Below, one piece after another: positions 1-10,926 of a stretch of DNA of 10,926 nt. Source of the stretch: a virus (Duplodnaviria; Heunggongvirae; Uroviricota; Caudoviricetes); IMG/VR virus record IMGVR_UViG_2728369607_000012, positions 1 through 10,926 of that record; one strand, given 5' to 3'. Both the position numbers and the translations under genes were made by a program. How positions within the stretch are numbered: position 1 is the stretch's first letter; each line of letters opens with the position of its first letter. The notes under the pieces are model-generated. The model made no database searches and was not told the DNA's origin. It was given only the letters and a program-made list of their open reading frames with translations.

Positions 1-34
1 TTTCCGGCTATCCGTTATGAAGCTGGTGGATGTT

Positions 35-85
35 CCCCGATATGGGGATCCCCATAACGGGGCTACCGGATTTTTTTCCGGTTAA
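35..85 (+). terminator. Paired CCCC-N5-GGGG hairpins followed by ACCGGA-T7-TCCGGT; possible terminator of an upstream plus-strand gene
   Basis: Imperfect 28-bp palindrome at 35-62 (ccccgatatgggga / tccccataacgggg), then accgga-ttttttt-ccggt at 65-83. Confidence 0.25.
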
Positions 86-342
86 CCTTTAATCAGGCTG
101 GTGGGTCTTACATACCCTTGATCACCGTAATGATGATCCAGATGTGCACCTTTTCCACCAATGGCGGAAAAGCTCCAACCGTAACGATGATCGCTATGGT
201 TGCCTCGATGGTCTGCGTGGTCATTATGACCATTCAGCCAGTGACCTTAATCAGAATTTTTCGCTAAAAAATGACGTTGGCCACGTCATCCGGAAAGCAC
301 AAAATCACGTCGATTTTTAATGAACGGTTAAACCGTCTTTTT

Positions 343-377
343 GTCACGGTGTGTCACTGGTTGTCACTCTCCGTCAC
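343..377. promoter_or_regulatory. Four GTCAC pentamers at exact 10-bp phasing (candidate protein-binding array)
   Basis: GTCAC at 343-347, 353-357, 363-367 and 373-377; nearby palindromes at 270-286 and 324-337. Confidence 0.35.
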
Positions 378-406
378 GATTGAGGTGGTGCTCATTCTGC
401 CCGACC

Positions 407-629
407 GCGCATTTTTGCGCTATCGGGAATATAAAACAGTTACCGCGCCGACTTCCTCAAATTGAGGTTTCCGAAAATATCAACTAGTTAACGATAAACT
501 GGCGAGTAATTAAACTACGAAAATTTCGTAGTTTGTGAATATATTCCGGCCTGCTGGTTAACAGTCCTCAGATGTGAGGGATGTAGCCAGCGCAATTTTG
601 CGTTATCGGGAATATCAAACAGTTACCGC
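407..629. repeat. Two 40-bp direct repeats (407-446 and 590-629, 37/40 identical) flanking small palindromes
   Basis: gcgcatttttgcgctatcgggaatataaaacagttaccgc versus gcgcaattttgcgttatcgggaatatcaaacagttaccgc. Between them lie hairpin-like sites CCTCA-N3-TGAGG (455-467) and CCTCA-N4-TGAGG (566-579) and a 23-bp perfect palindrome (512-534). Confidence 0.75.
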
Positions 630-674
630 CGTCAGCTACCCAGCTCAGAATTGAGCCGCCTTTTAATCAACAAG

Positions 675-965
675 TTACCGCCGTAACCGCCGTAACCGCT
701 CCGGCTTCTTCCAGTGGTACGTGATTTTCTCCTTCTCCCGATACAGTTCAACGCGGCGATTGTAGGCCAGCATTTCCAGAACGCGGATCCGTATGTCGCG
801 CATATCCGCATCATTAAGCTGGATACCATCACGGCGCATCACCTCAGCAACAACACGCGCATAATTTTCGGCTGTCACGCTGTCCGGCTGCGTGGTCTGT
901 TCGTCAGCCTGCTGGCTGATTCCAGAGACGCGGCGGATTAATCGCAGTATTTCGGCTTCTGTCAT
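675..965 (-). CDS. Hypothetical protein (96 aa) with Arg-rich C-terminus (RLRRLRR)
   Basis: ATG at 965 preceded by GAGGT with a 7-nt spacer; starts 13 nt after the TerL stop; C-terminus is encoded by three tandem 9-bp GTAACCGCC-like repeats at 674-700. No family recognised. Confidence 0.5.
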   Translation of the reverse strand: MTEAEILRLIRRVSGISQQADEQTTQPDSVTAENYARVVAEVMRRDGIQLNDADMRDIRIRVLEMLAYNRRVELYREKEKITYHWKKPERLRRLRR

Positions 966-978
966 GCTGCTGACCTCA

Positions 979-2640
979 TTACACCCCGCTAAATTCTTCC
1001 AGTTTCTGGCGGTGGCTGTCGCTTATATCAAAAGCAAAATCCTCATGCTCTGCCTGGAATGTACCAAACGCCATCAGCGCCGCTACGCTCGGGTCTATCT
1101 TGTTCGGTGATTTTTTCTTGTTCGGCTTGATATTGGCGTTCGCGTCACTCTGCATCACGACGTTACTCATCGACCAGGACAACACCGGATCGCCACGATG
1201 CACAATCACCCTGCGGTTAACAAAAACTTCGAACGATTTCGCCGCCGGACTGAATCTGAGGTAGGTTTGCGGGAACGGCTCCACCTCAAAACCAGCCCCC
1301 TGTAATTGCGTCCTGAGATGCGTGGCGTTCCACGTATCAAAGCCCACCAGCCTGATATTAAATTTCTCCGCATCCTGCATGATGTCATCTCTGATCCGGT
1401 CGTAATCAATGCAGTCACCTGGCGTTGTGCGTATCCAGCCCGCTTTAGCCCACTGGCGATAGACAGCGCGGTTTTTATTGGCGGGGTTCTGTAGCTGGAA
1501 CTCCGGCAGATAATGACGGGAAACCAGCATGATATTTTTACCGACCGGAAAGGCATAGCACACGCTGGAAATATCGCTGGTTGATGATAAGTCCAGCCCC
1601 GCGTAACACTCCTGCCCGTGTAAATCTTCCTCCGTGAACGTTCCGGCACACTCAGCCCATGCGCCGTTACCCATCCACGGGGTAGCCCCCTGGCACCAGA
1701 TATTAAATCGCTTTGTCATCATCTCCACCCATTGCGACGGAATACCCCGCGCTTTCTGGATGGTTGAGGCCAGTTTTTCACGATCCACGGAAACATCGAT
1801 GTTAGGGTTAGCCTTTATCCACATCGCCGGATCATCAACCTCGTTTTCGTCGTCCAGCTCGTAAATCAGCACAAAAATTGAATCGTTGACCTCTTCGCCG
1901 TCCAGGATCTGGCAGCAATAATCATAGTGCTGCTTACAGGCTGAAACGACGTTACTGCCCGATGTGGTAATGGCAAATAACAGCCCTTCGGGACGTGCGC
2001 CCATCCCCAGCTCAAGCGCGGAATAAACGCCGTTATCGGGGTGTAGGTGGTATTCGTCCACGATGGAAAGGCTTGGGTTTGTGCCCTCGATGGTTGCCGC
2101 TTTTGCTGCCAGCGGCTTTAACAGGCTGTTGCTTTTCGGGTGCATCACCTTGTGGGCCTGAATATTCACCCGCCTGCGTAACGGTCGGGATAAAAGGCAC
2201 ATCTGACGCGCATCATCAAAAACGATCCGCGCCTGGTCACGGCTCACCGCTGCGGTGTAAATATCCTGCTGCCCGTTCTCCATAATCAGAAACCAGTTAG
2301 CCAGAATCGCGGCGGTCGTGGATTTCGCATTTTTGCGCGGCACTTCGATAAAGGCGCTCGTGTATTTGCGCCGTCCGGTGGCCTTAACCTTAAAGCCGAG
2401 GATGCACGCAAAGGCGAACTGCTGCCACGGCTCCAGCTCAATGGATCTGCCACGCATCGGCCCTTTTACGTGCGGGCACACCCTGGAAAAGGCAATAAAC
2501 CGCTCCACAACCTCACGATCGAACGTGTAAAGGGGGCTTTCAAGGTCCGAAAAGTACCGTTTAACGGCCTGTTTCAGCCGTTTACAGGCCGGAATTTTGC
2601 CCGTTTTTACGTCTTCTGCGTACTTATTCCAGGCGGTCAA
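979..2640 (-). CDS. terL: Terminase large subunit (553 aa)
   Basis: Size, N-terminal pattern (AWNKYAEDVKTGKIPACKRLKQAVKRYFSDLE) and position directly after terS are typical of HK97/lambda-type TerL. Start codon is TTG at 2638-2640, preceded by AGAGGA with a 5-nt spacer; overlaps terS by 17 nt. Confidence 0.9.
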   Translation of the reverse strand: MTAWNKYAEDVKTGKIPACKRLKQAVKRYFSDLESPLYTFDREVVERFIAFSRVCPHVKGPMRGRSIELEPWQQFAFACILGFKVKATGRRKYTSAFIEVPRKNAKSTTAAILANWFLIMENGQQDIYTAAVSRDQARIVFDDARQMCLLSRPLRRRVNIQAHKVMHPKSNSLLKPLAAKAATIEGTNPSLSIVDEYHLHPDNGVYSALELGMGARPEGLLFAITTSGSNVVSACKQHYDYCCQILDGEEVNDSIFVLIYELDDENEVDDPAMWIKANPNIDVSVDREKLASTIQKARGIPSQWVEMMTKRFNIWCQGATPWMGNGAWAECAGTFTEEDLHGQECYAGLDLSSTSDISSVCYAFPVGKNIMLVSRHYLPEFQLQNPANKNRAVYRQWAKAGWIRTTPGDCIDYDRIRDDIMQDAEKFNIRLVGFDTWNATHLRTQLQGAGFEVEPFPQTYLRFSPAAKSFEVFVNRRVIVHRGDPVLSWSMSNVVMQSDANANIKPNKKKSPNKIDPSVAALMAFGTFQAEHEDFAFDISDSHRQKLEEFSGV

Positions 2641-2980
2641 GCTCGTCCTCTTCTTCTGTTTCCGGTGGATTTTTACGGCGGCTTATCGGGTCAAAACCGA
2701 GCAAGGAGGCCATTTTTATCATCACTCTTTCAGCGTCGGATTTTGCGCTTAATGCGGGGTTTCTGCTCTCGCCGCCCTGACTGTTAACAATGCTGAACCC
2801 GCGCGCCGCAAGGTCTGCAACGGCTTTCCGGTAAATGGAGTAGTTGACACAATACAGTTCCAGATTGCTCCAGTCGGCGGGGGTCAGGTCTCCCCGTTCC
2901 GCAAGCTGCCTAGATTTTTCCCGCCACTGCTTCACGGCGATATCATCCAGGTAGGCGGGGGCTTTCGGTGGTCTTGACAT
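2624..2980 (-). CDS. terS: Terminase small subunit, P27-like (118 aa)
   Basis: N-terminus MSRPPKAPAYLDDIAVKQWREK...LELYCVNYSIYRKA resembles P27-family small terminases; acidic C-terminus; sits immediately upstream of and overlaps terL. Confidence 0.8.
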   Translation of the reverse strand: MSRPPKAPAYLDDIAVKQWREKSRQLAERGDLTPADWSNLELYCVNYSIYRKAVADLAARGFSIVNSQGGESRNPALSAKSDAERVMIKMASLLGFDPISRRKNPPETEEEDELDRLE

Positions 2981-3269
2981 GCTTATTTTTTCGCCAGATT
3001 ATTTTTCAAAAAATTCCCGTGCATAAAAATTTGAGGAGGCGTTCGGTGCCCGGCGGGGTCGGGTTTGTCCTGAAAACGCCCCCCACCCCGTCATACAGCC
3101 TCATCAGCGATTGCGGAAACATTCCATAACCTCGCGGTCACGGTCGGTTAATCGCTTCGCTGTGATGCGTTCTGCGCGTCCTGACGCTTTATCTTTATGC
3201 CCTGTTTCCTGTGTCTTCCATGCGTCACGCTGCCTTATAAGTCCACGGATAAGGCGGTTTTGTTCCCGC
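2981..3269 (-). promoter_or_regulatory. Candidate cos / packaging-initiation region (HNH-terS intergenic spacer)
   Basis: 289-bp non-coding gap in an otherwise tightly coupled operon; GC-rich core (ggtgcccggcggggtcgggtttgtcctgaaaacgccccccaccccg, about 3038-3090) flanked by AT-rich sequence. Position between HNH and terS matches where HK97-type cos sites lie. Confidence 0.3.
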
Positions 3270-3710
3270 TCATTCATCAGCGTCATACATCCAGTTATTG
3301 CGGTTAGCGGCCCGTTCTTCCTCTTCACGAAATCCACCTGCGGCACGCTTGCTTTTTGTTGCCGGATCAAGCCATTTCGTTTTCTGGTTATGACACGCCT
3401 GGCACAATGGTTGATGGTTCCATTCGGGCCAGAAGAGAACATCATCACCGCCATTAATCGGGATAATGTGATCCACCACCACGGCGGGCGTATATATCCC
3501 CTTCTCAAGGCATCGCACGCATAACGGGTTTTTACTCAGATACATGGCGCGGTATTTGTCCCACTGTCTGGAATATCCACGCGCGCGGCGGTGTCCTCGT
3601 CTGGCATCCTCTGCACGCCATGCTGCCCGCCTGTGCTCCTCACACTTGCCGGATTTAACGCGCCTGTTACAGCCTGGTTCTGTGCATCGTCTTAATGGTT
3701 GCCACGGCAT
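3270..3710 (-). CDS. HNH endonuclease (146 aa), terminase-associated
   Basis: Cys/His zinc-finger-like N-terminus (CTEPGCNRRVKSGKCEEH) and HNH-type motif (VVDHIIPINGGDD...NHQPLCQACHNQKT); located directly upstream of terS; start overlaps connector stop (TGATG). Confidence 0.85.
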   Translation of the reverse strand: MPWQPLRRCTEPGCNRRVKSGKCEEHRRAAWRAEDARRGHRRARGYSRQWDKYRAMYLSKNPLCVRCLEKGIYTPAVVVDHIIPINGGDDVLFWPEWNHQPLCQACHNQKTKWLDPATKSKRAAGGFREEEERAANRNNWMYDADE

Positions 3711-4006
3711 CAGTACACCCCCACATCACGGTAAGCCGTCCAGAGTGCGCCAATCGTCATGGGTACGCGTGTTTTTGCGTTATCCGCGACAATCTGGCGA
3801 TTCTCATACAGGTGAGCGATAAACATCATGCAGCCAATCTTTATGGCTGGCGTGAACTCCAGCCCGTCATCAAAGCGCCTGCCTATGTGTATCTGGCACG
3901 CCTCAAGCGATGCGGCAATGTATCCGCTGATTAACTGGTCTTCCTCGTCTCCATCGATACGGCAATGGAGTTTCACTTCTTCCAGGGTGATAAGTTCTTC
4001 TGTCAT
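3710..4006 (-). CDS. Head-tail connector protein, gp6-like (98 aa)
   Basis: Size and sequence character (MTEELITLEEVKLHCRIDGDEEDQLISGYIAA...) typical of gp6-like connector proteins; ATGA start/stop overlap with the upstream gene. Confidence 0.7.
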   Translation of the reverse strand: MTEELITLEEVKLHCRIDGDEEDQLISGYIAASLEACQIHIGRRFDDGLEFTPAIKIGCMMFIAHLYENRQIVADNAKTRVPMTIGALWTAYRDVGVY

Positions 4007-4341
4007 TTTTCCGCGCCCTCACGACAAAGAATTTCAAGGCGTGTCCTGGCGACATCCGGCAACGGCTGCCCGATGATATTCAGTACACGCCCCGCCAGCG
4101 GCCCCGTACTGACCTTTATCCGGCTGGTGGCGTTGATGTCCTTCCGGTACCGTATCCAGATCCTTACGGTACCAATCGCCAGCTCTGCGCCCGATGAAAT
4201 GGCCTCCTTGCTGCTGATCATGTTCACGCTTGCCCAGAGTGTGTGACCGTCCTCCCACGTTTCGAGTATTTCGCCCGTCATGGCTCTGGTCTGTTTCAGG
4301 GTCTGAATCGTTATCCTGTCACGCAGTCGCCCTATGTTCAT
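4003..4341 (-). CDS. Head-tail adaptor / head closure protein (112 aa)
   Basis: Sequence resembles phage head-tail joining family proteins. Start chosen at ATG 4339-4341 (ATGA overlap with portal stop, GGGAGA upstream) rather than the longer form from 4383. Confidence 0.7.
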   Translation of the reverse strand: MNIGRLRDRITIQTLKQTRAMTGEILETWEDGHTLWASVNMISSKEAISSGAELAIGTVRIWIRYRKDINATSRIKVSTGPLAGRVLNIIGQPLPDVARTRLEILCREGAEK

Positions 4342-5549
4342 TCCGGTTTTTCTCCCTCGCTGATTTTTACTTCCTGTTTCCATGCCTGACTGAACTCATC
4401 ACCACCATCACGCGGTGACAGTCCTTCACGTTCGCGGGCTTCGTTCGGGCACATAACGCCGGATTTGATGCCGCACTCATAGGTGGCAAAGCGTTCGCCA
4501 GGTGTGGCCCGTAACAGGTCCGCGCTGTCAAACTCCACCTGATACCGGATACCAGGTACAGGCGAGGCCACCAGCAGGGCGTTTTTTATCTGCTGCTCAA
4601 AGTTCGCCAGCCACGGGCGCATCGTCATGGTGAGAAATGCGCGGCTTGCCTCGCTGAAATTGCTGTAGGTGCTGTTGCTGTATTCCTGCAAAAAAATCGG
4701 CGAGACGTTGAACATTCGGGCGATGTCTTCAATGGTAAAGCGACGGGAGGCCAGCCATTCAGCATCCTGATTACTCATGCCCAGCTGCTGATAGCTCATC
4801 CCCCCTTCAAGGATGGGCGTTTTTCCGGCGTTTCTGGCCCCTTTGTAGCGTTCCAGTGCGGCTAATGCCTGTTTGCCCTTCACGCCGTCCAGCCATTCGC
4901 CTGACGTGATAACCCCTGCCGCCATCATGCCATCACGCATCACGCTCGCGCCGTGGCGTTGTTGGGCCAGCCCAAGCCCCAGCGATTCGCGGCAGATGGT
5001 TACAGGTGAGCGCCCCATAAAGCCGTCATCCGTGGAGTAACGAAGGTGAAGTACTTCCCACGGTAAATAGTTGTGGGTGTTTCCGGTGTAGGCGTCAGTG
5101 ATGCAATAGCGCCAGTTGTGTTCGCCTGTCTGCTCCACGTTCACCGACTGCGGCGGGTAAGGATGTAAAGCCGCCGGAAAACCATCACGCCCCCACTGAA
5201 TAACCGCATAAGCATTACCGTTTAACAGGCAGTGGCGGATCATCATTCGCTTAAACTGGTAGGGGGTTTGCCATGCGTTCGGGCGCTCGTTGAGGATGTG
5301 ATCGACCGGATGAGAATCAAGCCACTCGCGGGCCTCCTTCCCCTTCTCATTGCGTACCAGGTACAGGTAGCATGGCATAGTAGCCACCGCCTCAGAGATG
5401 ACCGTAACGGCGTTCATGACGGCAGGCAGTGATTCCGCTGTCCCCGATGATACGTACTCACCCGCCCCCGTGTTCGATGTGCCAGCCAGCGCCATAAATT
5501 CATCAAGCGTCATGCTGCGCTGCTCTTTTTTTCTTCTGAAAGGCCACAT
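4338..5549 (-). CDS. Portal protein, HK97-type (403 aa)
   Basis: Size and sequence typical of HK97-family portal proteins; flanked by prohead protease and head-tail adaptor genes. Confidence 0.88.
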   Translation of the reverse strand: MWPFRRKKEQRSMTLDEFMALAGTSNTGAGEYVSSGTAESLPAVMNAVTVISEAVATMPCYLYLVRNEKGKEAREWLDSHPVDHILNERPNAWQTPYQFKRMMIRHCLLNGNAYAVIQWGRDGFPAALHPYPPQSVNVEQTGEHNWRYCITDAYTGNTHNYLPWEVLHLRYSTDDGFMGRSPVTICRESLGLGLAQQRHGASVMRDGMMAAGVITSGEWLDGVKGKQALAALERYKGARNAGKTPILEGGMSYQQLGMSNQDAEWLASRRFTIEDIARMFNVSPIFLQEYSNSTYSNFSEASRAFLTMTMRPWLANFEQQIKNALLVASPVPGIRYQVEFDSADLLRATPGERFATYECGIKSGVMCPNEAREREGLSPRDGGDEFSQAWKQEVKISEGEKPE

Positions 5550-5550
5550 A

Positions 5551-6123
5551 TCACACCCCCGCTAAATCCACCCACCAGCGGCGATTATCCGCACGCGGCA
5601 TTTTTTCGGGGTGCTGCTCATACAGGGAACGGCGGGCCAGCTCCACGCCGGAATCGGGGTAAGCCGGTACCGATGTAACGGTAATTTCGTACAGTTCCGC
5701 CACCAGCACGGTGCGCACGCATGGATCTGTTGTGGTATCCCATACATCCTTACGGGAGCGAAAGCCAAAGCTCATGCCGGATATATCACCACGTTTAACC
5801 AGTTCGATAACGTCGCGCCCTGTACTGGTATCCGGTGGGGTCAGTTCAAAGCGTAACCCTGTTTCATCCTCTTCCAGTTTCAGCGTGCCGGAACGGGTGC
5901 GCCCCAGTAACATACTGTGGTCATGCTCATACAGGCCGCGAACGTCATTACCCGCCGCAAGCCATTCAGTAAACGCCCCCCGCTGGAATTTTTCGTAAAA
6001 CTCACCCCATAACAGTTCTGAAAGCTTATCCCAGCGAACAACGTAGCCTGTAAGCGTGTTGCTGCCGCTGGTGGTGATTTCCGATGACCGGATTTCCATA
6101 CTCTTCATAATTTTTTCACCCAT
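5551..6123 (-). CDS. Prohead maturation protease, HK97-type (190 aa; exact start uncertain)
   Basis: Sequence typical of HK97-family prohead proteases; sits between major capsid and portal genes. Three ATGs within the first nine codons make the start ambiguous. Confidence 0.82.
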   Translation of the reverse strand: MGEKIMKSMEIRSSEITTSGSNTLTGYVVRWDKLSELLWGEFYEKFQRGAFTEWLAAGNDVRGLYEHDHSMLLGRTRSGTLKLEEDETGLRFELTPPDTSTGRDVIELVKRGDISGMSFGFRSRKDVWDTTTDPCVRTVLVAELYEITVTSVPAYPDSGVELARRSLYEQHPEKMPRADNRRWWVDLAGV

Positions 6124-6133
6124 AAAACACTAA

Positions 6134-6151
6134 AGGGGCTTTTAAGCCCCT
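6134..6151 (-). terminator. Stem-loop plus U-rich tract between capsid and protease genes (partial terminator / attenuator)
   Basis: On the minus strand: AGGGGCTT-AAAA-GCCCCT-type hairpin followed by TTAGTGTTTT immediately before the protease ATG. Confidence 0.35.
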
Positions 6152-6162
6152 TCTGTATGCTG

Positions 6163-7320
6163 TTAATCGTCGTCCTGTGGCAGTTCCAGAATCTTGATCG
6201 CGTTCGAATCCACCACGCCACCGCCTAAATATTTCTGCGTGAAAATTTTGATGAAACCCGGCTCTGTGAGGTTGTCCGGTCTGGTGCGAACACCTGTTTC
6301 GTGATCAACAATGTAGTAACCGCGTTTGAAGTCACCCAGGGCAATAACGTTATCAGGCATAAACTCCAGATATTCGACCGGAAGGCCCAGCAACGTATCA
6401 GGATCACCCGCCTGTAAACGGTCACGCCAGATGTAATCACCGTTCGCGTTCTTCACCTTCTGGAGTTTTGCCGCCGTCGTGGAGTTAACCACCCAGACCG
6501 CGTTTTTGCGGTATTTTTTACGTAATGCAAATTTCAGGTCGATCAGCGGGTCCGCAGATGTCCACGCCAGAGATTCGGAAGGTTTAATTACCTGCAACGT
6601 ACCAAAATCACGCTCTTTGTCGTTCTTCTCTGCACGGGGTACGGATAAAAAACCTTTTGCTTTTTTGTCACCGTCGCCCACAACCAGATCGCTTTCTTCG
6701 GTTTCCGTGAAGGTGTCGCCAATCTCACCCGTCAGCCATGAAAGGATGTCCACATCGGAAAAATCCACGATTTCCTGTGTGGTGCGCGGGTACGCATAGA
6801 CCGGATACAGCTTAATGCTCACCTCGTTAATCTGCGGGGTGCTGGTCTGTTCGCGTGCCTTACCCTCTTCACCGTGGTTAACGGTCGCACCGCCAGCGGA
6901 AACAAGCTGCTTAAACTCGTTGCTGCTGATTTTTTTCACGGTACAGATGCGGCGCATGGTGGACTCATCCGCCAGCATTCGCATGATTTCGGTGTTCAGT
7001 TCGGGGATAACGGTATAACCACCATCAGCGGGAACGCCTGTACTTAATGCGCGGGTTTCACCTGTCAGAATGTAGCTGCGTAGTTCTGCGGGGTCAGTGG
7101 TCTGGCTGCTTTTACCTGGCTTGCTGCGCTCTTCGTCTGCAATGGCTTCAAGGCGGGAAATGTCTTTATCGAGGGATTCAGCTTTAGCGCGTAATTCGTC
7201 AAATTTTGCGCCCTCAGCATCGTTAAGACTGCGGTTTTCTTTTTCCGCGTTCTCCAGCATGTCGCGCATCTGATTTTTAATGGCGGTTTTCTGCTGGCGT
7301 AATTCGATTATTCTCGGCAT
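6163..7320 (-). CDS. Major capsid protein, HK97-type (385 aa)
   Basis: Size typical of HK97-fold capsid proteins; N-terminal region rich in charged, coiled-coil-like sequence (delta/scaffold-like domain); followed by protease and portal genes. Confidence 0.88.
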   Translation of the reverse strand: MPRIIELRQQKTAIKNQMRDMLENAEKENRSLNDAEGAKFDELRAKAESLDKDISRLEAIADEERSKPGKSSQTTDPAELRSYILTGETRALSTGVPADGGYTVIPELNTEIMRMLADESTMRRICTVKKISSNEFKQLVSAGGATVNHGEEGKAREQTSTPQINEVSIKLYPVYAYPRTTQEIVDFSDVDILSWLTGEIGDTFTETEESDLVVGDGDKKAKGFLSVPRAEKNDKERDFGTLQVIKPSESLAWTSADPLIDLKFALRKKYRKNAVWVVNSTTAAKLQKVKNANGDYIWRDRLQAGDPDTLLGLPVEYLEFMPDNVIALGDFKRGYYIVDHETGVRTRPDNLTEPGFIKIFTQKYLGGGVVDSNAIKILELPQDDD

Positions 7321-7357
7321 AAAAAAAGTCCTGGGGTTAAGTAAGGAACTCCAGGAC
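7321..7357 (-). promoter_or_regulatory. Terminator-like hairpin plus U7 abutting the capsid start codon
   Basis: Minus strand reads GTCCTGG-AGTTCCTTACTTAACC-CCAGGAC then TTTTTTT then ATG. The only SD-like AGGA lies inside the 3' arm of the stem. Confidence 0.4.
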
Positions 7358-7410
7358 GCGGCAAAAACTCAACCGTTTTTCATAAGGGAATCAGCAATCG
7401 CACCGATCGT

Positions 7411-7458
7411 TTTCCCGCCTGGTAATGAATATTGGCGAGCACATTAACAGGCGGGAAA
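7411..7458 (-). repeat. Inverted repeat in capsid-operon leader (11-bp perfect arms, extendable to 17 bp with one mismatch)
   Basis: tttcccgcctg (7411-7421) and caggcgggaaa (7448-7458) are exact reverse complements. Confidence 0.6.
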
Positions 7459-7504
7459 GTGGCCCCAGCGTCCTGGCACCACGGGCGAGAATAATCATGA
7501 TTCA

Positions 7505-7560
7505 GTTCGGGTAAAATATGCCGATCCGCTCAGTGAACAACGTGGAACAACCACGAACAA
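7505..7560 (-). promoter_or_regulatory. Candidate promoter / activator site for the capsid operon: three helically phased TTGTTC hexamers
   Basis: On the minus strand TTGTTC recurs three times at exactly 10-bp spacing (plus-strand GAACAA at 7535-7540, 7545-7550, 7555-7560). The last copy sits 16 bp upstream of a TATTTT -10-like hexamer (plus 7513-7518). Confidence 0.3.
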
Positions 7561-7565
7561 ATAAT

Positions 7566-7601
7566 TTACAAAAAATAACAAAAAGCCGGATTGCTCCGGC
7601 T
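7566..7601 (-). terminator. Rho-independent terminator
   Basis: Minus strand: AGCCGGA-GCAA-TCCGGCT stem-loop (GNRA-type loop) followed by TTTTTGTTATTTTTT; lies downstream of the 53-aa ORF stop at 7624. Confidence 0.65.
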
Positions 7602-7623
7602 GCGTGGTGTGGTTCTGATATTC

Positions 7624-7785
7624 CTACTCTGCTAATTTGCTCAGCCCCATGTCTGCGTAAGTGCGATTTACTGCATTTCTCAGGTCTGCGTAGTTCTCCG
7701 TTGGCGGCTCCGGTGTGCCCTTGCTGCTCTGTTTTACCTGCGGGTCGTCCACCAGCCGCCCGTAAGCTGCAATTTGTGCTGTCAT
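7624..7785 (-). CDS. Small hypothetical protein (53 aa)
   Basis: ATG at 7783-7785 preceded by GAGGTGG with a 4-nt spacer; starts 9 nt after the upstream gene stop; followed by the intrinsic terminator. Below the 60-aa cutoff of the supplied ORF track; found by manual translation. Confidence 0.45.
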   Translation of the reverse strand: MTAQIAAYGRLVDDPQVKQSSKGTPEPPTENYADLRNAVNRTYADMGLSKLAE

Positions 7786-7794
7786 ATTGCCACC

Positions 7795-8100
7795 TCAGTG
7801 AAGCGATCCGGCATTGTTCTTTTTCATCTCTTCCATCATTTTTTCAGTGAGCATTACGCACTGAAACCCCATGTTTTTGATGTCTACGGGTTTCATGCCT
7901 TTGTCAGTGGATATCACAGGCAGAATATCCTGATACACATCGCGGTCAGGGTAACTAAGCACACAAAGCGCCCATGATGCCACGGGTGAGGATCCTTCGA
8001 CTGTTTCAACCCACCAGCCTGGTGTAGCTGCGCTTATTTGCAGAATCGTGATCCGTCCGTTGTGCTTGTAAAATTTTTCACCAAATTTTGGTTCGCTCAT
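7795..8100 (-). CDS. Hypothetical protein (101 aa)
   Basis: Start ATG overlaps the stop of the upstream ORF (ATGA); co-oriented in a tightly packed operon. No family recognised. Confidence 0.55.
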   Translation of the reverse strand: MSEPKFGEKFYKHNGRITILQISAATPGWWVETVEGSSPVASWALCVLSYPDRDVYQDILPVISTDKGMKPVDIKNMGFQCVMLTEKMMEEMKKNNAGSLH

Positions 8101-8348
8101 GATTCCACCTCTCCGGTTTTAACGTTGATTGTTGTTACCTGTTCCGCTTCGGCAATCTCCCGTTCTGTCAGCGTGGCAAAGTTTGCCGCCGCTGTGGTCA
8201 TGAATGCGCTTATCAGTTCGGGATGCTCCTTCGCGTATCCTTCCCCCGCGTGGCGGTCTATCGTTCTGATTGCCACCTTTAAAGCGTGCTCTGTCATGTC
8301 TAACGCTTTATATTTTGGCTGTGTTCTGTCTCTGCGTTTTTGTGTCAT
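8097..8348 (-). CDS. Hypothetical protein (83 aa from ATG 8348; start uncertain)
   Basis: The longest form (from 8396) has its N-terminus encoded by the iteron repeats, so an internal start is more plausible. ATG 8348 is abutted by GGGGAG; ATG 8297 is an alternative. Confidence 0.45.
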   Translation of the reverse strand: MTQKRRDRTQPKYKALDMTEHALKVAIRTIDRHAGEGYAKEHPELISAFMTTAAANFATLTEREIAEAEQVTTINVKTGEVES

Positions 8349-8351
8349 CTC

Positions 8352-8525
8352 CCCACCTATACCCACTTTTACTCCCCACTTTTCACAATTCCCCATTTAT
8401 CATGCTGTTTCATAAGGATTTTTTTGCTCCCCACTTTTTGGGATGTATACAGGTCAAAAAGTGGGGGATCGTGTTTAAATTTTGTTAAATTCCCCATACC
8501 CACCACTTTTGCCACCCACTTTTTA
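8352..8525. repeat. Iteron array: candidate replication origin
   Basis: CCCACTTTT-type motif in direct orientation at about 8362-8370, 8374-8383, 8429-8439, 8499-8510 and 8515-8524, and inverted at 8456-8466. The 8429-8439 and 8456-8466 copies form an 11-bp perfect inverted repeat around a 16-bp spacer containing GTATAC. An AT-rich stretch lies at 8471-8490. The array begins at the replication-protein stop codon. Confidence 0.55.
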
Positions 8526-9932
8526 CAGTGGCCCTACATCATCGCCGTCAACATAGATAACGCCGTCTTTTTCCAGCTTGCCCAGCCAGCGCCGGAAGTG
8601 CTTTATTTCGTACCCCAGTTTTTTCATGTCATCACGTAACAGCGGGATCGTGCACTTGTCGCCGTTCTGTGTGCGTGAACGGATACACCCCCATAGCGCG
8701 GTATGGTTTTCCGTCTTGTTGCCTGCCTCTTCGATGCGCTCCAGTTCAACGGGAGGGCGCGGCTTATCCACCACCACCAGCGACGTGATTAACTCCCCGT
8801 CAGCGTCGGTAAAAAGCTCCACCACCCGCAAATCATAGGCAGCCTCTTTGAGTTCCTCCGCGTCCTTCATTTTGGTGCATGAGATAACCAGCGCTTCGCT
8901 TCCTGCGTCCTCCCTGCGTATCCGGTATTCAGCATCCAGTGATGCACGAAATGCACTGGAACCGCGCGCGCCTTTCGTCTCATCCTTGCCGGAATGGTGA
9001 ACCACCAGCACCGTGGCCCCTGTGCGTCGTTTCAGTTCGTCACAACCACGGATAAACGCCCCCATATCACGGGAATCATTTTCATCATTCCCACCAAAGC
9101 AACGCGCCAGCGTATCCAGAATAATCATGCGTACAGGTTTACCCGTTTCCCGCTCCACCTGACGGGCAGCGATAACCATTTCATCAACATCAAGCGGGAC
9201 CGCCGGAAAGATGGGACGGTTTACCAGATACAGATTTTTCACCTGCTCACCGTGCACAACCTCCCAGGCTTTTACACGACGCGGAACGCCGATACCGCCT
9301 TCACCAACCACATAGAGAACAGCGCCATGCGCCACCCTGCGGCCTCCCCACTGGCGGCCCGTGGAAACGTGACACGCCCACGATCCGGCAAGGAATGATT
9401 TATAGGAACCGCTCGCCCCGTATATGCTGCAAAGCGACGATGCCGGAATAATCCCCTTTACCACGTAATCAAGCTGTGTGTCGTATCCGGTAGATCCAAC
9501 GCTCATCGGTAGCGTGGTTTTTCGCTGGGGGATTTTTTTCATGACCAGGCTTTCCCCGCGTTCCCATGCCTCCCTAAGCCGTGGAAGCTGGTCGCTCCAT
9601 TCCTCCAGCAATTCGAAATTTTCAGAAAGTAGCCGCGCCTCCTGGACTCCGGCGATCGCCAGTTTCGTGGCGATGGTTAACAGCTGCGGCTCTTCAATAT
9701 TTCCGGCGCGTATCACCGTCGCCCTGTATCGCCCATCATCAACAATCTGGAGGTTATCCAGTTCGCTTAACTGATAACGCCCCAGATAAACGGGAGGGAC
9801 TGGATCTCCTGCTTTTTTTGCCTGTGCAATGATGTAATGCTCTGCGAATGAATGAGCATCAATACCCGCAAAAATAATCGCATCGGTGTATTTATCTTTC
9901 GGTAATCGTTTTACGTTCGGTGCCAGTTTCAT
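8523..9932 (-). CDS. Replication protein with RecA/DnaB-like ATPase core (469 aa); satellite or phage replication initiator-helicase
   Basis: Walker A-like GASGSYKS, Walker B-like RMIILD, and VVHHSGKDETKGARGSSA motif typical of RepA/DnaB-like replicative ATPases; N- and C-terminal extra domains; start forms an ATGA overlap with the upstream ORF. Confidence 0.8.
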   Translation of the reverse strand: MKLAPNVKRLPKDKYTDAIIFAGIDAHSFAEHYIIAQAKKAGDPVPPVYLGRYQLSELDNLQIVDDGRYRATVIRAGNIEEPQLLTIATKLAIAGVQEARLLSENFELLEEWSDQLPRLREAWERGESLVMKKIPQRKTTLPMSVGSTGYDTQLDYVVKGIIPASSLCSIYGASGSYKSFLAGSWACHVSTGRQWGGRRVAHGAVLYVVGEGGIGVPRRVKAWEVVHGEQVKNLYLVNRPIFPAVPLDVDEMVIAARQVERETGKPVRMIILDTLARCFGGNDENDSRDMGAFIRGCDELKRRTGATVLVVHHSGKDETKGARGSSAFRASLDAEYRIRREDAGSEALVISCTKMKDAEELKEAAYDLRVVELFTDADGELITSLVVVDKPRPPVELERIEEAGNKTENHTALWGCIRSRTQNGDKCTIPLLRDDMKKLGYEIKHFRRWLGKLEKDGVIYVDGDDVGPL

Positions 9933-10228
9933 TTTTTACCCCTGAATCCGTTAATCATGGTTTTCAGCTTCTGGATGTTTGCCCGTGCCCTGGCGTTGCT
10001 GGTGGGCACGTTATGCGGCGCGGTCTGTACCAGAGAAAAATCACGCCGGAACTGATAAACAGGCATCACGCAATCATATTCGTAACCTTCACGGCGGTAA
10101 GTTACGCACCGTCCCGCCACGCCCTTAATCATTACCGTACCGCCGTACTGGTCGCGGTAAATATCACCGCGCGTAAATTTAGGGTGAGTGTTGCCACTGG
10201 CAGTTAAGCCAGAATATTTAAGTTTCAT
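9929..10228 (-). CDS. Hypothetical protein (99 aa)
   Basis: ATG at 10228 preceded by GGAGAA with an 8-nt spacer; stop overlaps the replication-protein start. No family recognised. Confidence 0.55.
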   Translation of the reverse strand: MKLKYSGLTASGNTHPKFTRGDIYRDQYGGTVMIKGVAGRCVTYRREGYEYDCVMPVYQFRRDFSLVQTAPHNVPTSNARARANIQKLKTMINGFRGKK

Positions 10229-10233
10229 TATTT

Positions 10234-10467
10234 TTATTCTCCGGTGTGGGGCGCTTTATACTGGTCGTGTAATGTCTCTATTTCCTGCAACTCATTTATT
10301 ACAGGCTCAAGAAGCGTTATTAATGCCGTGGCAATTCTTGATTTTTGTTTGTCGCGTTCATTGTCGCCAAGTGTTTCAAGCCATATGCGCAATATTTCCA
10401 TCATATTTTCACTGTGAGAAAGTGCAAGAAATACGCGATCTGTTGTTTCGTGGTAAATATCACGCAT
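10234..10467 (-). CDS. Hypothetical protein (77 aa)
   Basis: ATG at 10467 preceded by GAGGATG with a 6-nt spacer; overlaps the upstream ORF by 8 nt. Confidence 0.5.
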   Translation of the reverse strand: MRDIYHETTDRVFLALSHSENMMEILRIWLETLGDNERDKQKSRIATALITLLEPVINELQEIETLHDQYKAPHTGE

Positions 10468-10693
10468 GGCTTACATCCTCAGGAAATTTTCTTCTGTAAC
10501 GAGCCTCTGCCACATATTCCGCATAATCGGCGGCGATATTCAGTACATCAAGCCCCGTTGATTTATATTCTCTCGTGGAAAGTAAGAAAAAAGCCGCTCT
10601 AATAAGTTCTGGCATTGACGAAAGCGCATCAGCCGCATCATCAGATACGCCGGAAAATTCCTGTTTCAGGGAATTAAAACGATCATCAAGCAT
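10460..10693 (-). CDS. Hypothetical acidic protein (77 aa)
   Basis: ATG at 10693 sits 2 nt downstream of a G9 tract on the coding strand; part of the same small-gene operon. Confidence 0.45.
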   Translation of the reverse strand: MLDDRFNSLKQEFSGVSDDAADALSSMPELIRAAFFLLSTREYKSTGLDVLNIAADYAEYVAEARYRRKFPEDVSHA

Positions 10694-10926
10694 AACCCCC
10701 CCCCATTTTCACAATCAGCAATCAGGATAGCTTTGGCCTCATTCAGCGCCATATCAGCACTAAGTTGCATAACCGCCAGCGAATGAGGAACGAAAGCCCC
10801 TGCATATTCTGTTTCACTGGTGGCGTGCTTATGCGCCCTGTCAGCAATAACAGAAATATCAATAAGCGCGTGCATCAGCGTAGTGAGCGCGGCGGCTGCT
10901 GCGTCCGGTGTGGTTTTATTGTGCAT
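10666..10926 (-). CDS. Hypothetical protein (86 aa or longer; may continue beyond the window edge)
   Basis: Open frame reaches the window end, where an ATG sits at 10924-10926; the 3' end reads through the G9 tract (encodes GGG). Confidence 0.4.
   Translation of the reverse strand: MHNKTTPDAAAAALTTLMHALIDISVIADRAHKHATSETEYAGAFVPHSLAVMQLSADMALNEAKAILIADCENGGGLCLMIVLIP
10696..10704. repeat. Homopolymeric C9 (G9 on coding strand) tract
   Basis: Nine consecutive C at 10696-10704, read directly from the sequence. Confidence 0.9.

Follow-up and report, generated by a model that had tools for sequence, protein, structure and literature searches.

Phage-inducible chromosomal islands of the capsid-forming type (cf-PICIs) in proteobacteria share a conserved organization in which the capsid gene comes first (Alqurainy et al., bioRxiv 10.1101/2022.09.08.507074). 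The same study found that the packaging modules of phages and PICIs "have different genetic organisations" and that long branches part cf-PICIs from phages in capsid and TerL trees. It proposed an ancient capture of phage modules and described three independent cf-PICI groups that differ in gene order. In the prototype, EcCIEDL933, each module gene tested was needed for transfer of the island and dispensable for the helper phage, and helper tails were required. The EcCIEDL933 capsid has T=4 geometry, is 47.5 nm across, and contains 240 capsid copies per icosahedral shell; the capsid protein is cleaved at residue 93, which leaves a mature N terminus with the motif S93-x-G-x-x-A-D (He et al., bioRxiv 10.1101/2025.02.11.637232). 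According to these cf-PICI papers, the adaptor and connector proteins of the island determine which tails it can use. Here we analyzed a stretch of 10,926 nucleotides (nt), positions 1 to 10,926 of the IMG/VR virus record IMGVR_UViG_2728369607_000012 (the window), whose head genes had been singled out in an earlier note for their unusual order. We conclude that the window is almost certainly the interior of an EcCIEDL933-type cf-PICI, a satellite of about 15 kb in an Escherichia coli or Shigella chromosome.

We found that the window capsid is identical at 382 of 385 residues (99.2%) to PDB 9GYI, the EcCIEDL933 capsid model, so named by He et al. (bioRxiv 10.1101/2025.02.11.637232). Relative to 9GYI, the three substitutions are S82N, A117T, and A156T. 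This deposited structure was the means of comparing the window directly with the EcCIEDL933 sequence, and the comparison covers the capsid only. We also found that the window is up to 98.4% identical to E. coli chromosomes and that at least 80% of it is covered in 82 of 5,426 complete genomes. In E. coli strain S19-141 (locus L001), an element 97.8% identical to the window lies between thiM and rcnR, and its ends are 71-nt direct repeats (att) 14,960 bp apart. This element encodes a tyrosine integrase, AlpA (PF05930, 2e-16), an Icd-like protein, a DUF4222 protein, the RepA helicase, the head and packaging operon, and one small open reading frame (ORF). We found no tail or lysis genes, including holin and endolysin genes, among the 27 annotated genes of the complete L001 element, and none among the window ORFs by Pfam and PHROG.

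Taken together, the window carries its own head set of five genes and its own HNH, TerS, and TerL genes, in the conserved cf-PICI order. It also carries the replication part of the island backbone, a RepA-family replicative helicase of the PICI replication module (8523-9932, minus strand; Pfam AAA_25, 2e-43; phrog_2850, 5.9e-224) encoded upstream of the head operon. Its homologue in L001 is named "helicase RepA family protein" by RefSeq. Just 3' of repA, a repeat search found a cluster of iterons (TTTTNCNCCCCACTTTT; 8367-8523, strand not applicable) with three direct copies plus inverted copies, which by its position and repeat structure is probably the replication origin. The rest of the backbone (int, AlpA, att, and a length of about 15 kb) is present in L001. 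Tail and lysis genes are lacking, and its capsid and TerL group separately from their phage counterparts in the limited phage sample used here. Canonical gene order, tail genes, a lysis cassette, and phage genome size, all expected of an HK97-like temperate phage or prophage, were not found. Genomes of tailed temperate HK97-like phages are roughly 35 to 60 kb.

Two points weigh against this identification. The int and alpA genes and the att sites lie outside the window and are known only from its near-identical relatives. Helper induction, small T=4 capsids, self-packaging, and tail theft would likewise be carried over from the prototype on the strength of near-identity. Between repA and the capsid gene lies an accessory region that varies among relatives, and there the window also differs from L001. 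At 7603-7710, 108 nt stand in place of a 623-nt perC/ssb segment of L001 (15597-16219) that encodes PerC and most of SSB, and most close relatives have the longer version. The start of a 53-amino-acid (aa) ORF at 7624-7785 is homologous to the L001 ssb start, and the C terminus is weakly PerC-like.

We called ORFs on the window and assigned families by Pfam and PHROG matches. Every head and packaging gene is encoded on the minus strand, and the module ORFs are all intact and tightly coupled. We conclude that positions 979 to 7320 of the minus strand form one single head-and-packaging operon. Transcription runs from 7320 to 979, through the genes for capsid, protease, portal, Hc1, Ad1, HNH, and a 60-aa ORF, then a cos-like site, terS, and terL. 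The first gene (6163-7320; PF05065, 1.6e-61) encodes an HK97-fold major capsid protein (MCP) of 385 aa. Its N terminus includes a delta (scaffolding) domain, and the S93-x-G-x-x-A-D motif of the mature N terminus is found in the window protein. It is followed by a prohead serine protease of the S78, HK97 family (5551-6123; PF04586, 4e-48; phrog_80, 3.7e-67) and the portal (4338-5549; PF04860, 1.8e-89; phrog_12, 2.3e-114). Next is Hc1, a head closure or head completion protein (Phage_HCP; 4003-4383; PF05521, 1.1e-22; phrog_25, 8e-34). By the RefSeq call in L001, its start is likely at 4341, with a 4-nt overlap with the portal stop. Ad1, a gp6-like head-tail adaptor (3710-4006; PF05135, 8.4e-12; phrog_40, 7.9e-36), is the fifth morphogenesis gene. 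In the cf-PICI papers, Hc1 is called the "head-tail adaptor" and Ad1 the "head-tail connector." The packaging genes are those for an HNH endonuclease, a packaging accessory of HNH-cos phages (3270-3710; PF01844, 1.8e-8; phrog_144, 8.1e-45), the small terminase TerS of the P27 family (2624-2980; PF05119, 1.3e-23; phrog_83, 3e-39), and the large terminase TerL (979-2640; phrog_9, 2.7e-178), with its ATPase (PF03354, 1.3e-25) and nuclease (PF20441, 1.6e-50) domains. A 96-aa accessory ORF of unknown function lies 3' of terL in a variable region (675-965, minus strand; phrog_1561, 1.7e-55). We considered it as a ninth module gene and rejected it, as only 12 of 89 capsid-first loci have it.

The earlier note had given the order on one strand as capsid, protease, portal, adaptor, connector, HNH, terS, and terL, and the Pfam and PHROG assignments place the genes exactly so. 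It had located this order at 3710-7320. That interval does hold the five morphogenesis genes, but HNH, terS, and terL lie at 979-3710. The note had not mentioned the reversal of the adaptor pair (Hc1 then Ad1 in the window, Ad1 then Hc1 in HK97), the 60-aa ORF, or the cos-like site. Read from left to right on the plus strand, the genes appear as "terL ... portal, protease, capsid." This is the reverse of the coding direction and hence not the phage order.

The order in HK97 is terS, terL, portal, protease, MCP, Ad1, Hc1, gp10, tail terminator, and tail genes, and its HNH gene lies at the genome's right end. We found the same canonical order in phiP27, VW-6S, and YeP1, the nearest phages by capsid, and in BiPBO1, AS1, and PARCL1pr, the nearest by TerL. 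The canonical order assumed in the note is seen in HK97 itself, with HNH at the far end, and in six further phages. Taking the eight genes as a permutation on one strand of a circle, we found, as the note had claimed, that the window order is not a rotation of the canonical one, and that a minimum of three block transpositions separates the two. The only adjacencies kept are those of HNH>terS>terL. The capsid/protease, protease/portal, and Hc1/Ad1 adjacencies are reversed without a strand flip. Because an inversion would flip the strand, a single inversion cannot give the window order.

We then asked how the order is distributed among related loci. To determine gene order, we built a hidden Markov model for each of the eight families and ran it against every ORF in the loci that were fetched. 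The phage sample consists of the nearest relatives fetched rather than of all HK97-like phages, and related loci are not independent. Among 408 records of the phage database that matched the capsid, only four were at least 58% identical, and the next true phages were at most 40% identical. These four are vB_KppS-Ant (16.5 kb), the end of the 106-kb P12620-1, a 3.8-kb Salmonella fragment, and Pasteurella Pmp8 (15.3 kb). Three of them were examined (vB_KppS-Ant, P12620-1, and Pmp8), and all three have the capsid-first order. For TerL, identities of 68 to 82% were followed by a drop to at most 36% (3,208 records). In IMG/VR, all 80 loci with a capsid at least 64% identical to that of the window were consistent with the capsid-first order where the contig allows. 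The full order was seen in 50, 16 were without Hc1, and the rest were missing other detected genes, were cut by contig ends, or were composite. None of the 80 had a matching capsid in canonical order. In contrast, all 80 IMG/VR loci around VW-6S-like capsids were canonical. A scan of bacterial genome contigs with the capsid gave 12 loci, which served to show the breadth of genera but were too few for the statistics, which come from IMG/VR. Five bacterial genomes above the same 64% capsid threshold (Shigella, Rosenbergiella, Citrobacter, Erwinia, and Gilliamella) were also capsid-first. The order is thus seen with intact ORFs across Escherichia, Shigella, Citrobacter, Erwinia, Gilliamella, Rosenbergiella, and Pasteurella.

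We built neighbor-joining trees from dereplicated sequences and found that capsid-first and canonical loci form a clean bipartition for all three proteins, with bootstrap values of 91/100 (capsid), 96/100 (portal), and 100/100 (TerL). Identity between the groups reached at most 0.40 for capsid and 0.36 for both portal and TerL. These were the synteny comparison and the trees that the earlier note had proposed as checks, and the finding that it had named as fatal, the same order in ordinary tailed phages, was made in none of the 80 VW-6S-like loci and none of the seven annotated phages. Its suggestion that the head modules form a lineage of their own, and are not those of a prophage that decayed recently, is supported by the identity gap, the trees, the conservation of the order, and the lack of a tailed phage that has it among those sampled. 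These comparisons of sequence support a distinct lineage. The odd order is a fixed trait of the proteobacterial cf-PICI lineage, capsid-protease-portal-Hc1-Ad1 followed by HNH-cos-terS-terL, and not the mark of a rearranged or decaying prophage. Both the gene order and the conclusion on the lineage had already been published (Alqurainy et al., bioRxiv 10.1101/2022.09.08.507074), and the observation of the order adds nothing to them.

Several relatives depart from the window in content. The 16 IMG/VR loci without Hc1 (for example, L032-L039, L049, L050, L054, and L062) have Ad1 and HNH directly after the portal gene, with no space for another gene; L011 and L180 also belong to this Hc1-less subfamily. 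In vB_KppS-Ant, a 765-aa ORF after terL (L002, 2036-4333) matches tape-measure PHROGs (phrog_2854, 2e-176) and has no Pfam match. In Pmp8, a gene for a gpU-type tail terminator lies just upstream of the capsid gene, and terL is followed by an HK97-gp10-like gene (L004, 1-408 and 6620-7078). These neck- and tail-like genes sit in the variable regions that flank the operon. In two Bartonella metagenome-assembled genomes (L016, 7693-15298, and L018), the order on one strand is portal-(gap)-capsid-HNH-...-Ad1-...-terS-terL, and the capsid is about 30% identical to that of the window. This order resembles the "portal-protease-capsid first" layout of some cf-PICIs of Firmicutes.

In a curated phage collection, at least five records labeled as phages have a capsid or TerL at the satellite level (LR881103.1, OR544139.1, OR544138.1, OR850982.1, and PQ569648.1). 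vB_KppS-Ant and Pmp8 are capsid-first, satellite-sized elements deposited as phages, and the phage-labeled Pmp7 (10.7 kb) matches at the satellite level by TerL only. In Klebsiella phage P12620-1 (106 kb), the satellite module lies at the very end of the record, which suggests an assembly chimera. RefSeq gives the genes of such satellites plain phage protein names. The capsid-first order together with the lack of tail genes has diagnostic value, as it tells satellites from prophage remnants. Recognition matters for the tracking of gene flow because cf-PICIs build their own heads, borrow the tails of unrelated phages, and carry DNA between bacterial species.

The spacer between HNH and terS holds two further conserved features. 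The cos-like region (3000-3100, minus strand), which we recognized by alignment with phiP27 and Pmp8, reads ...CCGAACGCCTCCTCAAATTTTTA... on the minus strand, and the 10-nt cos annotated in phiP27 aligns with window positions 3036-3045. The motif CAAATTTT was present in the HNH-terS spacer of 63 of 78 capsid-first loci, compared to a background of 0.037 per kb. The position of cos cleavage is putative and follows from homology to the annotated phiP27 site. The linear ends of vB_KppS-Ant are ambiguous in this regard, as its record is without about 70 nt that are present in the window around the junction. The need for cos to sit between HNH and terS would explain why HNH-cos-terS-terL stays colinear with phages. 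The second feature is a conserved basic ORF of 60 aa (3104-3286, minus strand) that matches a family of unknown function (phrog_3173, 7.5e-37). By tblastn, it was found in 61 of 89 capsid-first loci, and the only canonical loci with a match were those with a satellite insertion. In L001, it is annotated by RefSeq. With the numbering counted from the capsid as gene 1786, we infer that it is the positional counterpart of the EcCIEDL933 "hypothetical gene 1792." Transfer of the EcCIEDL933 1792 mutant was severely impaired (bioRxiv 10.1101/2022.09.08.507074).

These data fit a life cycle whose steps were established for the prototype in the papers cited above and would apply to the window by near-identity. 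According to this model, a helper HNH-cos lambdoid phage would bring about AlpA-dependent induction, after which the island would excise and be replicated by RepA and the iterons. Its own HK97-fold capsid protein, trimmed at residue 93 by the S78 protease, would assemble on the island portal into small T=4 heads. TerS, TerL, and HNH, aided by the 60-aa protein, would cut the island's own cos between HNH and terS, so that only the 15-kb island would be packaged. Hc1 and Ad1 would then seal the portal and attach tails that belong to the helper or to other phages.

The 39-nt gap between the capsid and protease genes contains the top-ranked terminator-like site in the window, a hairpin (6132-6153, minus strand) that reads from 6153 to 6132 and has a 9-bp stem with five G-C pairs and a T-rich tail. 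We found a comparable hairpin after the capsid stop in 82 of 88 related capsid-first loci, and in 69 of these it has a T-tail. By comparison, random 60-nt windows of the same loci gave a mean of 17 of 88 with a hairpin and 4.4 with a T-tail. At least four different stem sequences occur at this place among related loci. We propose that the hairpin is an attenuator or a stabilizer of mRNA. Partial termination after the first gene would enrich capsid mRNA over that of the downstream genes. HK97-type heads require far more copies of the capsid protein than of the portal, neck, and terminase proteins. Partial termination would fit these needs, given the 240 capsid copies per shell reported by He et al.

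It is possible that the capsid-first order and the conserved hairpin together set the stoichiometry of expression from one promoter, and we offer this tentatively, with more doubt than confidence. Several findings speak against it. A hairpin follows the capsid gene in 78 of 82 canonical loci as well, and the HK97 annotation has a putative terminator after the MCP gene; being common in canonical phages, the hairpin is not specific to the capsid-first order. RNAalifold predicted five pairs with no compensatory changes, on a poor MAFFT alignment in which varying loop lengths misaligned the 3' arm. On this strand of the window, the region upstream of the capsid gene yielded no sigma-70-like promoter. 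The leader of the operon (7321-7601, minus strand), which we analyzed by repeat and terminator searches, contains three hairpins. A terminator-like hairpin with a T-tail (7601-7584) follows the upstream ORF, a 17-nt inverted repeat spans 7458-7411, and a third hairpin (7357-7328), with the sole AGGA in its 3' arm, is followed by T7 directly before the capsid ATG. The layout of the leader hints at control of the operon by read-through or antitermination.

To see how far the capsid-first order extends, we searched with the capsid over 1.84 billion cluster representatives. Full-length matches comprised cf-PICI representatives at 60 to 63% identity, P0126 at 40% (296 bits), P0128 at 40% (238 bits), and a continuum at 42% or less. 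In all, 836 HK97-fold capsid representatives matched at E < 1e-30. P0126-like capsids are encoded at 13 IMG/VR loci (L183-L195), which are mostly environmental. Twelve of them have the order capsid-protease-portal-(HNH)-terS, and no adaptors could be detected in these. The exception is L186, where an Ad1-like ORF separates the capsid and protease genes. One of the twelve, L192 (6974-17689), is an integrated element that spans about 11 kb and encodes a P4-type integrase, a primase-polymerase/helicase, and a nonspecific nuclease. No terL, HNH, or adaptor gene was detected in it, and it may be an undescribed, "partly capsid-forming" type of satellite. For P0128, we found no locus that encodes the capsid in the viral or metagenome contigs searched. 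We considered whether the environmental capsid-first elements are marine VEIMEs and rejected this, as VEIMEs are reported to be without major capsid genes. These results are suggestive only of a capsid-first arrangement that reaches beyond the clade described so far.

We weighed three other explanations. Under one, the window would be a decayed HK97-like prophage, its tail, lysis, and lysogeny genes gone and its order scrambled through rearrangement. All eight proteins do belong to ordinary HK97-type phage families and carry phage labels in RefSeq, and one source names a homologous Xenorhabdus capsid as that of "prophage CP-933C." Decay is hard to reconcile with ORFs that are all intact and tightly coupled, with the same order and content in at least seven genera at capsid identities down to 58 to 64%, and with complete elements, constant in size at about 15 kb, that carry int, alpA, and repA as well as att repeats. 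It would also have to produce three or more block transpositions with no gene changing strand. Identity to the closest true phages does not exceed 40% for capsid and 36% for TerL, and the prototype is experimentally functional. We therefore consider decay highly improbable. The head module could also belong to a gene transfer agent (GTA), domesticated and packaging random DNA, or to a self-sufficient small virus. The GTA of Rhodobacter capsulatus (RcGTA) does provide the next solved capsid structure after 9GYI (E = 9e-47), and Pmp8 and vB_KppS-Ant have the extra gpU-like, gp10-like, and 765-aa tape-measure-like genes. Against this, an integrase, att sites, a replication module, and a cos-like site indicate a mobile element that packages itself and not random host DNA, neither the window nor L001 has tail tube, tape measure, baseplate, or lysis genes, and transfer of the prototype needs helper tails. 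This explanation has just as little probability as decay, and the window is best read as a cf-PICI.

The third explanation accepts the cf-PICI and concerns the meaning of its order, which could be a neutral frozen accident of a module built stepwise or from two captured blocks, one for morphogenesis and the other HNH-cos-terS-terL. We give this close to an even chance. The three independent cf-PICI groups differ in order, so function tolerates several orders, and an ancient capture of modules was proposed by Alqurainy et al. (bioRxiv 10.1101/2022.09.08.507074). HNH-terS-terL is the sole block still colinear with phages, the nearest phages by capsid and by TerL are different sets, and the hairpin after the capsid gene is shared with canonical phages. 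An accident accounts less readily for an order that is strictly conserved over deep divergence and is common to an environmental sister clade at only 40% capsid identity, or for a hairpin placed immediately behind the operon's first gene, a site at which termination would favor capsid mRNA. These arguments do not prove selection. A broader proposal is that capsid-first is the shared derived trait of a satellite-only HK97-type lineage, much deeper than the known enterobacterial cf-PICIs, that includes the environmental sister clade, with the order kept by selection because a promoter-proximal capsid gene and an attenuator hairpin set stoichiometry without phage-style late antitermination. As a whole, we consider this unlikely.

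A separate observation concerns the integration site of related satellites. In E. coli ETEC4085 (L180; NZ_CP122634.1, 3522-19900), a related cf-PICI lies inside the terL gene of a lambdoid HNH-cos prophage, and we found the same arrangement at L035, L158, L172, and L178. The capsid of this inserted satellite is about 75% identical to that of the window, and the Hc1 gene is lacking. The insert is 14,607 bp long and follows codon 342, with a 14-bp core at its flanks (AATTTTTTTACCAA / AATATTCTTACCAA). Copies of this prophage terL without an interruption, at 98 to 99% identity, occur at L164, L171, L146, L167, and L152. Removal of the insert from L180 in silico restored a TerL of 585 aa, which matches the L164 protein at 584 of 585 residues. 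RefSeq marks both halves of the interrupted terL as pseudogenes. The arrangement is present in at least 10 complete E. coli genomes. A literature search found no published description of satellites integrated in terL, and the text of He et al. makes no mention of terL. Such an insertion would make packaging of the prophage depend on excision of the satellite.

Compared with known systems, the window shares the families of all eight genes with HK97-type HNH-cos phages (HK97, phiP27, the helper HK106, VW-6S, and YeP1). HNH-cos-terS-terL is colinear in the two, and the cos region of phiP27 resembles that of the window. Unlike the window, these phages have the order terS-terL-portal-protease-capsid-Ad1-Hc1-tail and carry tail, lysis, and lysogeny modules; the annotated phages examined are 37 to 47 kb, compared to 14.96 kb for the satellite relative. 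Their identity to the window is at most 40% for capsid and 36% for TerL, and the HK97 capsid is T=7, compared to T=4 for the cf-PICI. RcGTA (PDB 6TB9 and 6TSU) has a small HK97-fold head, and its capsid was the second-best match among solved structures. It has the canonical gene order and its own tail, is not known to carry an integrase or a replication module, and fills its heads with random DNA of the host.

The classical PICIs of E. coli (EcCICFT073 and EcCIED1a) have in common with the window type an int-alpA-rep backbone and helper-dependent induction. They lack a capsid, portal, and terminase set; instead, they redirect helper packaging by Rpp and use helper capsids. The cf-PICIs of Firmicutes (Bacillus/Clostridium/Staphylococcus and Lactococcus/Enterococcus) share the concept and the minimal set of capsid, protease, portal, connectors, HNH, terS, and terL. 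Their orders differ from that of the window, with either portal-protease-capsid or HNH-terS-terL first, and they form separate capsid and TerL clades that are thought to be independent in origin (bioRxiv 10.1101/2022.09.08.507074). EcCIEDL933, from E. coli O157:H7 EDL933, has the same content and order as the window, capsid-protease-portal-adaptor-connector-HNH-small ORF-terS-terL.

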